A stretch of DNA of 64,000 nt from Coraliomargarita sp. (GTDB lineage Bacteria; Verrucomicrobiota; Verrucomicrobiia; Opitutales; Coraliomargaritaceae). Location of the stretch: the NCBI GenBank assembly GCA_965216325.1, contig OZ244160.1, positions 640,001 through 704,000 on the forward strand, given 5' to 3'. The notes beneath the pieces were generated by a model. The model searched no databases, was not told where the DNA came from, and was given only the letters and a program-made list of their open reading frames with translations. This document shows, in pieces, positions 2,941 to 5,599 of this stretch. Within the stretch, counting starts at the first letter, position 1. The number at the start of each line of letters is the position of its first letter. Both the position numbers and the translations under genes were made by a program.

Positions 2941-4134
2941 TTATTCGCCAATGTCTACAGCCGAATAACGTGCCGCTTGAACTGGAGGAGCGGCCATTTG
3001 GTATTCGTTGACCTGTAGAATCTTAAAAGGAAACTGTATGGCGTCTTGCTCGCTGGCGGAGCCGGTCTTGGGGGCGTCTTCGCTACTAGAGCCTGGTGCA
3101 CTGCCGGGTGTCGCCCCCCCTGCGCTTGCTTCATCGCCGAAATTGGGCTCAACCATGGCTGTTAAGCTGAAGGGCACTTCACCGCGTTTAATCCGCACGG
3201 TGACACGTAATAGGCCGATCTCTACGCCTGTCATATCGCCTTCTGCGGACCCCGGGACAGAGGTGAGATAGGGCTCGTCCAGACCGTCGAAGAGGTAATC
3301 GCTTTGCCAGTTCCCATTCTCAGCAAGGGCGTCGAGAACTTCTTGTGGCGCGGAGTTCAAGTTGACGGCCCCGGAATTTTCCACGGATACCAAGTTGGAA
3401 AGCTGCTGAAATAATTCGTTGGGACGCCCGTCGTCATCGAAAAATTCGTCCTGCCAGACGCGTAGGAGGCGGAGTTCCTCGAGCGATTGGAGGGGTGCAT
3501 TCGCGGCTCGGTATTCGGGGCTGCCACGCAGATACTCTTCCGATTCCGCTCCGTTGAGCATTTGGTTGTCGTCCTCGTCGATCCAATCCTGCAGCACGCT
3601 GACCAATTCACGCGTCGTGCCAAAATCGAACTCGAGCTGCTCTTCCAAGACTTGCACCAGTAGGTCGCTGTTTTCGTTAACCGAGTTGATGGGGATTTTG
3701 CCGCCGATGTCTTCGATGCTAATATCGACCTCCCATCCGCTGGGGATTTGGATGCCCGCGTAGCTGATGGGATCGTTCCAGCCCTGTTCGCCTGCATAGA
3801 GCTTACCATCATCAATGAGCGCAACCTCTTGCACCGTCGCGAGGGCGACCTCCAGCATGCTGTAGGCAAAACTGCGGACCTCGGGCGGTTCGCTGAAAAT
3901 CGCGCGGTATTCCAGATCTTTCATCGCCTCCTGCATGATGCGAACGATCAGGAAGGAGAGCAGGAGAATGATGGCGAGGACCGCGACGAGCACACTGCCG
4001 CGCCGTGAAGTCGTTCGTAGACTGGTAGCGCAGCCGCGTCCTCGCGGCGCATCGATGGGCGAAGCTGAGGGGGTGCGGAGCGGGGACGCTCCTGCGCTAC
4101 CATTTATCTCGAAACTGTCCCTAACTTCACTCAT
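2941..4134 (-). CDS. gspK: T2SS minor pseudopilin GspK
   Basis: [13 protein letters not shown] prepilin site lacking E5; [25 protein letters not shown] and [11 protein letters not shown] motifs of GspK. Confidence 0.9.
4025..4100. repeat. REP doublet inside the gspK leader
   Basis: GTAGCGCAGCCGCGTCCTCGCGGCGCATC and an inverted arm reading GTAGCGCAGGAGCGTCCCCGCTCCGCACC on the minus strand. Confidence 0.9.
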
Positions 4135-5030
4135 TAAAATAAAAACGCACTTTGGGAGGGCACGGGGATCGCGATGACGCGTTCTTTTGTTTCACCTTCA
4201 TAGTCGAAGGTTAGTTTTAAGTAGCGTGGTAGCAGGTATTCTTCGTCGCCTTCACCTTCTTCGGGCTCGTCGGCTTCTTCCCACTTTTCAAAGGTTTCGT
4301 CCCAGTAAATATAGCTCAGTTTTTTGGCGATTGGGCTAATGAGCGTGCGGCGTAGATCACGCTCGTCTTCGACCTCTTCTTGGAGGTTGGAAGTCCAGAG
4401 TAGGCTGAGACCTTCGGATCGGTCGAAATGTAGATAGGTTTGCACTTTGGTAAAGGGCACTTCGTCGACTCCAACAAGCAGTGGGGGGGCGGTGGTCAGA
4501 CTAAAACTGAGCAGAGGTTCTTCGTAGCCTGCCGAACCGGGCAATTTCTCCCATTGAATCGGTGTTTCCGAGGTGCCGCTTAAGCCGCCGGCGTTCGTTT
4601 CTTTTTGCCCGTTGGCGGGAGTGCCCAATGCCAGAGATGGATTCTCGAGCTCGGGCCCCTCATTGCCCGCTTCAGATTCCGTGTTTTCACTTTGATCGCC
4701 TGCGCCGATCTCATAGCCGGCCATGGTGAAATTGGCCTTGAGGAATTCAGCGACTCCATCGACGTGGTCTTCAAAGAAATGGCGGTTTTGACGCTCGTGC
4801 CAGATGTTGCTGACTGATACGAGAAAGGTGGTTGCGCTTGCGAGGACAAAGCCGGCAACCGCAATCGCAAGCACGACTTCAATCAGGGTCATGCCACGGC
4901 GGCTTGCCTGATGGCTCGGAGTGGACAGTGGGGTCGCGCGAGTGCCTCCGGCACCGCATCCGGGCTGGTGGCGAAGCTTTCGTGGTGCGGAGCGGGGACG
5001 CTCCTGCGCTACCTGTTGAATCGCACTCAT
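4134..5030 (-). CDS. gspJ: T2SS minor pseudopilin GspJ-like
   Basis: [15 protein letters not shown] prepilin motif; C-terminal LPRYLKLTF; start overlaps the gspI stop (TAATG). Confidence 0.8.
4933..5012. repeat. REP doublet inside the gspJ leader
   Basis: 4984-5012 is identical over 29 nt to 4072-4100; left arm GTCGCGCGAGTGCCTCCGGCACCGCATC. Confidence 0.9.
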
Positions 5031-5599
5031 TATCGGAAATCGCGGTTGCTCTCGAGCTCGTCCTTTTTATCGGCTAGCAGATCACTGCGTTCATCGGCTT
5101 CGGACCAAGTAGGACGTAGTAGGTAGAGCGTTTCGCTGTAGCTGTTGTCTTGGCCTTCTTCGGGCTCGCTAAATTGTATTCGGAGTTCGACTTGGAAGAG
5201 GTCGACGACGTTTGTGGCCTGGATTGTTGCCTCCCAAGAGGCTTCGCCATTACTGTAGGTTTCAATTCCGCCGCCGTCTTCGGCTGCCTCAAGCTCTGGT
5301 TCGAGGAGGAGTTGCATGCGCACGGTGCGGATATCGGCTTCGTAGTTGTCGTTACTGACGCCATGTTCTCGAGCAAGGAGAGCATTGGTGAAGGCTTGGC
5401 TGAGCACGACCGCTGCACCTGCAAAGATCGCGAGGGCGATCACGACTTCAATGAGTGTAAAGCCACGCGGTGAGGGTGGCTGGGGTGTTGGTTGTTGGGA
5501 GGTCGGGCTGGCGCGTCCCGCGCCGCATTGTGAATCTTGGCTAGGGATACGTGGTGCGCACCGAGGACGGTGCTGCGCTAGCTTTGGCGGCTCCATCAT
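5030..5599 (-). CDS. gspI: T2SS minor pseudopilin GspI-like
   Basis: [15 protein letters not shown] prepilin motif; ATGA overlap with the gspH stop. Confidence 0.8.
5502..5581. repeat. REP doublet inside the gspI leader
   Basis: GTCGGGCTGGCGCGTCCCGCGCCGCATT and an inverted arm reading CTAGCGCAGCACCGTCCTCGGTGCGCACC on the minus strand. Confidence 0.8.

Follow-up and report, generated by a model that had tools for sequence, protein, structure and literature searches.

Short palindromic repeats within bacterial reading frames have been described before. Repetitive extragenic palindromic (REP) sequences of the GTAG class are reported in frame in the highest number in the verrucomicrobium Opitutus terrae, where the host genes include HrpA and an epimerase/dehydratase (Di Nocera et al. 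2013, PMC3733652, in the part of that report drawn on here). The same part states that REP dimers encode 20-30 residues and notes their excess at the N-termini of open reading frames (ORFs), most of the N-terminal cases being doubted as translated. In the current analysis of a 64-kb window from the genome of Coraliomargarita sp. (contig OZ244160.1, positions 640,001 to 704,000) we have identified three inverted doublets of GTAG REPs, referred to as REPINs, inside the reading frames of gspI, gspJ and gspK, the consecutive minor pseudopilin genes of a type II secretion operon, in the segments that encode the leader peptides. It is fairly likely that these are REPINs mobilised by a REP-associated tyrosine transposase (RAYT), which have come to rest at the preferred site of their family behind a stop codon and are tolerated as translated filler of a leader that is discarded. 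Bare positions refer to the window and positions prefixed G000:C1 to the contig of the 3.06-Mb Coraliomargarita genome, G000; related genomes are designated in the same manner.

The elements share with the GTAG/CGTC REPs of Opitutus terrae, as presented in the available part of PMC3733652, and with the Rickettsia palindromic elements the character of short dispersed palindromes in frame, with HrpA and an epimerase/dehydratase among the hosts here too. As in the Rickettsia elements, the repeat is in frame, the host frame is intact and relatives without the repeat exist (GspI and GspJ of G001 and G003; RfbB of G001). Unlike the cases covered in that part of PMC3733652, the host here is a leader predicted to be removed by proteolysis, the doublets are present in three genes in succession and several repeat families have been found at the site; unlike the N-terminal cases doubted there, gspI here is without an alternative start. 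Supplement 3 of PMC3733652 has no pilin, pseudopilin or methylation-motif entry, and a literature search joining REP with prepilin leader peptide gave, among the papers listed, none combining both. A palindromic repeat tolerated in frame is already known, also in this bacterial group; what is new is the class III leader as the host segment, the involvement of three consecutive genes and the occurrence of several repeat families in the same leaders.

The likeness to REPIN-RAYT systems, as far as described in the section of Bertels and Rainey (2011, PMC3116915) referred to here, extends to the inverted REP doublets, the transposase gene placed between doublets and the tens of copies that are mostly extragenic; the present family differs in its low copy number (29 doublets) and in that several copies are very likely translated. 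For pilins and pseudopilins, leaders of 6-26 residues are given in the relevant part of Berry and Pelicic (2015, PMC4471445), which also states that the prepilin leader remains cytoplasmic, with cleavage on that side of the membrane. The proteins considered here share with such class III signal peptides the Gly at -1, a hydrophobic helix of about 21 residues, the Glu5 of GspI and GspJ, a hydrophilic basic leader and an A24 peptidase. They depart from them in leader length, which lies outside the range given with 46 residues in GspI, GspJ and GspK and up to 58 in the sister species G002, mostly derived from repeats. Enterobacterial intercistronic REPs and bacterial interspersed mosaic elements are likewise found inside polycistronic operons behind the upstream stop codon, where they stabilise the upstream mRNA or stall terminating ribosomes; these occupy untranslated spacers, whereas the gsp elements here are without a spacer and are part of the next ORF.

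The three host genes are encoded on the minus strand. gspI (5030-5599) has an N_methyl (PF07963) match at residues 45-60 and a leader encoded by 5462-5599, while gspJ (4134-5030) has the N_methyl match at residues 43-66, a leader encoded by 4893-5030 and a Met at +1 past the Gly. gspK (2941-4134), with a leader encoded by 3997-4134, matches PF21687 (T2SSK_1st, 1.1e-13); a match to gspK is present in 37 of the 41 related genomes, this one included. The Gly at -1, the hydrophobic helix and the Glu at +5 are intact in GspI and GspJ, which have the PF07963 matches among the three. The prepilin motif of gspK is without Glu5, the absence of which is usual for GspK. Exactly 46 codons precede the Gly codon in each of the three genes, as counted from the translations, and the starts overlap the upstream stops as ATGA (gspH/gspI), TAATG (gspI/gspJ) and TAATG (gspJ/gspK), read directly from the sequence.

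Between start codon and Gly codon, each gene carries one doublet. That of gspI (5501-5582, 82 nt, unit scores 20.0 and 22.0) begins 17 nt past the A of the ATG and 13 nt behind the gspH stop, with the perfect stems GGCGCG/CGCGCC and GCACCG/CGGTGC. The doublet of gspJ (4932-5013, 82 nt) lies 16 nt behind the gspI stop, with a layout of 17 + 82 + 39 nt identical to that of gspI; the doublet of gspK (4024-4101, 78 nt) lies 32 nt behind the gspJ stop with a layout of 33 + 78 + 27 nt and is the best preserved of the gsp copies, both of its units having the maximum score of 23. In gspI and gspJ the outer head of the doublet has decayed. The stems of the six units are GCCGCG/CGCGGC, GGAGCG/CGCTCC (twice), AGTGCC/GGCACC, GGCGCG/CGCGCC and GCACCG/CGGTGC, and a run of 30 identical bases (GGTGCGG...GCTACC) is common to gspJ and gspK, where it is read in different frames. 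A preliminary description of this DNA had reported the doublets at 5502-5581, 4933-5012 and 4025-4100, about 18 nt into gspI and gspJ, together with covarying stems, overlapping starts and a 29-mer read in different frames in gspJ and gspK. Every point of that account is upheld by the present coordinates, stems and starts, the shared run being 30 bases long.

The repeats belong to a genuine REPIN family with a cognate RAYT. The REP unit consists of GGTAGCGCA, a 6-bp stem, a TC-rich loop, the complementary stem and then GCA, and occurs with at least seven stem variants, every one of which is complementary. About 6 occurrences of the head GGTAGCGCAG would be expected in a genome of 3.06 Mb, and 81 are found. 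A scan that scores the head, the 6-bp stem, the TC loop and the GCA tail has identified 91 units, whereas the reversed genome used as control gave 5; 58 of the units pair into 29 doublets, with the heads outward in all. Doublet length has its mode at 89 nt (11 of 29 exactly), the gsp copies being 78, 82 and 82 nt long. A RAYT ORF (G000:C1:2016047-2016499), which matches the NCBIfam equivalog NF047646 (REP_Tyr_transpos) with 94.1 bits over a cut-off of 80, has 89-nt doublets on both sides (G000:C1:2015947-2016035 and 2016501-2016589). The REP identity proposed in the preliminary description, which also recommended looking for such a gene, is thereby upheld. Most of the copies are extragenic; the three gsp doublets and units in HrpA and RfbB are found within reading frames. 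The head pattern has 66 matches in G000, 43 in G001, 18 in G002 and 89 in G021, a member of another genus, with none in the controls; neither REP pattern has a match in G003, which belongs to the same genus and whose genome is 76% complete.

Two other searches for the unit have been set aside. A regular-expression scan allowing two mismatches in the head gave 700 matches against 770 in the reversed genome and was rejected as noise in favour of the scored scan. An nhmmer profile of 62 units gave 64 matches at E <= 0.01, a low yield since the profile ignores stem covariation, and was not used for counts.

The placement of the doublets follows the habit of the family. A crude gene map has been drawn up from 2514 greedily chosen ORFs with a minimum of 100 residues, which cover 89% of the genome. 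By this map 19 of the 29 doublets are located behind a stop codon at a distance of up to 40 nt; when the gsp doublets are left out the figure is 16 of 26, and 20% of random points in non-genic DNA lie as close. The usual distance is 4-37 nt, to which the gsp copies conform with their 13, 16 and 32 nt from the gspH, gspI and gspJ stops. Placement behind stop codons has been reported for other REP families too (Di Nocera et al., PMC3733652, in the portion available). In the explanation favoured here, REPINs, as GTAG-headed hairpin doublets mobilised by the RAYT, would have settled from a few to about 35 nt behind the upstream stop. This stop overlaps the next start in the operon, and the preferred site therefore falls within the reading frame of the next gene, be it gspI, gspJ or gspK. 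The insertions may survive because nothing but the hydrophilic leader of a class III signal peptide is encoded there, a leader which would stay in the cytoplasm and be cut after the conserved Gly by the prepilin peptidase. Persistence would be limited to copies that keep the frame and bring no stop codon; such repeats would be translated as filler rich in Pro, Arg, Ala, Ser and Gly and lost with the leader, the leaders having been lengthened from an ancestral 5-20 residues to 46.

The preliminary description had considered the cleaved leaders as a safe haven for REP insertion. This idea is upheld in part. Removal along with the leader would be the natural outcome, in keeping with the intact motifs and with the single Peptidase_A24 gene of the genome (PF01478, 63.7 bits, G000:C1:1422209-1422574), which would provide the prepilin peptidase. 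A general haven is not found. Among the 16 prepilin-type ORFs identified by motif, in a scan that misses gspK and gspH, a REP within 50 nt is confined to gspI and gspJ. The enrichment at prepilin regions which that description had proposed to test is not seen. That the prepilin motif itself attracts REPs has been rejected on the same scan, 14 of the 16 motif-bearing ORFs having none within 940 nt. The habit of lying behind a stop fits the placement better than the idea of a haven.

The leaders of the relatives have been compared at 20 related loci, giving 21 genomes with G000. GspI has a leader of 5-16 residues in all 18 of the repeat-free relatives and of 53 residues in G002, the locus of G021 being without gspI at a contig end. 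GspJ leaders without a repeat are mostly of 8-26 residues, and GspK leaders range from 12 to 54 residues. G003 has leaders of 12, 8 and 22 residues for gspI, gspJ and gspK; the repeat-free GspI and GspJ of G001 and G003 have leaders of 8-15 residues. G000, G001 and G002 are mutually about equidistant, with about 75% nucleotide identity in gspI and gspJ. Judged from these comparisons, the repeats are insertions into leaders that were formerly short. Long leaders without REP homology in relatives, which the preliminary description had named as evidence to the contrary, are encountered for GspK, with 47 residues in G015 and G012 and no match elsewhere in their own genomes, and not for GspI.

Other dispersed repeats occupy the same leaders in other genomes. 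A second GTAG palindrome, with its heads inward and forming doublets of about 60 nt (e.g. G000:C1:2471108-2471165), is present in all three leaders of G002 and in gspK of G001. Its units number 15 in G002 (5 in the three leaders), 16 in G001 (2 in gspK) and 5 in G000 (none in the operon), with 0 in the controls, and its stems covary (GAAAGTGC, GAAACTGT, GAATCTGT). A long tail behind it in G001 and G002 has been rejected as part of the element, other copies being without the tail. The leader DNA of gspJ and gspK in G021 has matches at 31 and 55 further sites of the same genome, respectively. The gspJ leaders of G006 and G015 (loci L048 and L042) contain a tandem heptamer, TTCGAYG, which is dispersed in 18 of the 41 related genomes and absent from the controls. 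Some dispersed repeat is thus found in at least one of these leaders in 6 of the 21 genomes, G000 included. At least four kinds are involved: G000 has the REP described above, G001 and G002 share the second GTAG palindrome, G021 carries two further hairpin repeats, and G006 and G015 have the tandem heptamer. These occurrences tentatively suggest a wider reading, which we hold to be rather improbable, that minor-pseudopilin leaders are a recurrent, lineage-independent sink for unrelated small repeats. In it, elements would home to or persist at 5-35 nt behind a translated stop, and where genes overlap only a cleavable cytoplasmic leader could host them. If so, the position of a REPIN would be set by the end of the upstream ORF, the prepilin peptidase would handle leaders of 46-58 residues and the hairpins might tune the amounts of the GspI-J-K tip complex.

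Several points weigh against the explanation favoured here, and its rivals draw on some of them. The use of the overlapping ATG codons, the cleavage of the 46-residue leaders and the near-neutrality of the insertions are predictions made from sequence, and the gene map under the position rule is crude. The ATG at +1 past the Gly in gspJ and the GTG at +2 in gspK could each yield a leaderless product, as would be required if the starts have been mis-called and the repeats are untranslated intercistronic REPs, with translation beginning at the Gly or later and with frames left open by GC-rich sequence. Di Nocera et al. warn, in the part of PMC3733652 concerned, that REPs assigned to ORF N-termini are in many cases extragenic, and 73 of the 174 doublet-by-frame combinations genome-wide (42%) are free of stops by composition. 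Mis-called starts are nevertheless highly improbable. gspI has no in-frame ATG, GTG or TTG from the repeat to the Gly codon, and gspI of G002 likewise has no in-frame start past the repeat, except for a GTG inside it. A product from the start at +1 in gspJ or at +2 in gspK would be without the Gly that the peptidase requires. All seven repeat-bearing leaders of the three sister species G000, G001 and G002 (gspI, gspJ and gspK of G000 and G002; gspK of G001) are open and in frame from the ATG overlapping the upstream stop; a third of arbitrary insertions would keep the frame, and the chance is estimated at about 0.13 per leader if the frame were free. The first eight codons of gspK are alike in G000 (MSEVRDSF) and G001 (MSESSDSL), ahead of different repeats. 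The repeats, lying inside open frames, are thus very likely translated on the way to the pseudopilins. The density of the copies also exceeds what tolerance predicts, with 3 of 29 doublets inside 1.6 kb of the 3.06-Mb genome and in 414 nt, for which about 0.04 would be expected even with non-genic space alone as the base; tolerance alone, with 14 further prepilin-type ORFs repeat-free, does not explain it. The gspK leader, furthermore, is of exactly 46 residues despite its different layout. Local copying between the leaders by gene conversion or segment duplication, with one or two events and local spread in place of three separate transpositions, has an appreciable chance, short of even, of having produced the three copies, and is compatible with the favoured explanation and not opposed to it. 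gspI and gspJ have the same layout and a spacer that falls 7 nt short of the modal length, and in both a head has decayed to the rare form CGACC, found in 1 of the 26 other doublets; gspJ and gspK share 44 nt at 91% identity, spacer included. However, beyond the doublets the leader flanks of the three genes show only marginal similarity (shuffle p 0.03-0.16), the gspK copy has another frame and another layout, and local copying leaves the other families in the same leaders of other species unaccounted for. The gsp copies are probably sisters, which would explain why the leaders of gspI and gspJ are equally long but not why that of gspK matches them.

The stems of all six gsp units are perfect or nearly so despite two decayed heads, and this further difficulty could mean selection on the hairpins. 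The hairpins may accordingly have been co-opted as RNA elements that punctuate the operon transcript by slower 3'-5' decay, ribosome slowing or damped coupling, and so set the minor pseudopilins against GspG or against each other, translation being incidental. Such a role is unlikely. The copies do share the behind-the-stop placement, which Di Nocera et al. take as a sign of RNA function (PMC3733652, in the part drawn on); the different repeat families in the same three leaders of G002, G001, G021, G006 and G015 could be convergent recruitment; and the sole stem difference in a metagenome strain (5569 G>A) leads to a G-U pair on the transcribed strand. The predicted folding energies of the leader RNAs are -40.7, -54.3 and -58.3 kcal/mol for gspI, gspJ and gspK, and the gspK doublet folds better than dinucleotide shuffles (z -3.01). 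The gspI leader, however, folds no better than shuffles (z -0.29) and that of gspJ weakly so (z -1.55), the gspG leader as control having +0.41. The junction of gspG and gspH, where a stoichiometry switch would matter most, is without a repeat, gspI and gspJ are repeat-free in G001, G003 and most of the 20 relatives, and the orientation of doublets to the upstream gene is mixed genome-wide (9 same, 6 opposite), with no rule. The regulatory role of the hairpins has little support in these data, and insertion behind the stop with toleration as leader filler remains the explanation preferred.

A metagenome contig of 5003 nt, 98% identical, covers 3900-5700 with 36 differences and no indel, and keeps all three doublets. 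Third codon positions account for 23 of 27 differences in mature gspJ against 1 of 6 in the three leaders, which suggests that the genes are under purifying selection and the leader peptide sequence is not, with the frame kept, and adds to the case for translation of the repeats. No empty-site allele and no joint or deletion at the doublets has been found among the contigs of three metagenome runs, which cannot prove their absence. A single-base gap at 4082 has been rejected as a variant, since the contigs with this gap are short, match only 4071-4101 and would derive from REPs at other loci. RNA-library data yielded a single 167-nt contig, spanning 5487-5653, too little to show transcription or translation.

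Copies of the REP in frame have also been identified outside the operon, and those in HrpA and RfbB, very likely translated, strengthen the case for translation of the leader repeats. In HrpA a unit (G000:C1:842272-842299) encodes residues 10-19 (GSAGASPRRT); from residue 20 onwards the protein is homologous to solved HrpA structures, and the sole start codon lies upstream of the REP. Two paralogues of dTDP-glucose 4,6-dehydratase (RfbB) have in-frame units (G000:C1:1537568-1537594 and 1545548-1545574) in the loop before DRPGHD, an insert that is absent from the orthologue of G001; other inserts are present there in G002 and G015. A second variable insert has been observed in RfbB near residue 125. 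Another in-frame unit (G000:C1:2766402-2766428) lies about 139 codons into a 484-codon frame that resembles a tyrosine recombinase/integrase, the translation being judged by eye. The TTCGAYG heptamer has 21 matches in G000 (e.g. G000:C1:840582 and 2712432-2712462), of which one copy is within the HrpA frame.

In this locus nature offers a clean example of palindromes that are mobile, very likely translated and, as predicted, discarded afterwards; it is of the N-terminal kind that has been doubted in the literature. If the leaders are cleaved in the manner proposed, the known length of prepilin leaders would grow from 26 residues to 46-58, and the peptidase and membrane insertion would tolerate long cytoplasmic extensions, which would be useful for tagging pseudopilins. 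The presence of different repeat families in these leaders of sister species, together with the REPINs behind stops, offers a testable handle on where REPINs land or persist. In annotation, start codons should not be shifted downstream just to exclude a REP.

The operon, in the order gspG, a gspH-like gene, gspI, gspJ and gspK followed by a PilN-like gene, includes two further pseudopilin genes on the minus strand whose leaders are without a repeat. The major pseudopilin gene gspG (6101-6559) matches T2SSG (PF08334, 9.5e-28) and N_methyl (PF07963) and has its closest REP at 940 nt. The gspH-like gene (5596-6096) has a GTG start and a TGA stop that overlaps the gspI ATG; its identity is based on the N-terminal motif and gene order, the Pfam scan having given no match. 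Their leaders of 18 and 6 residues, set against the three of 46, are as the preliminary description had them.

The genome contains 19 Y1_Tnp-like (PF01797) matches (e.g. at 28229, 588851 and 605977 of the genome), flanking REPs having been examined for one of them. Three of the matches have identical scores in open frames of 346-361 residues and probably represent a multi-copy element of the IS200/IS605 type. A REP unit (G000:C1:1422936-1422963) is located just 5' of the likely ATG of the Peptidase_A24 gene, within an extended open frame. The window also includes a fourth REPIN doublet of 83 nt at 34006-34088, with unit scores of 19.75 and 22.0.

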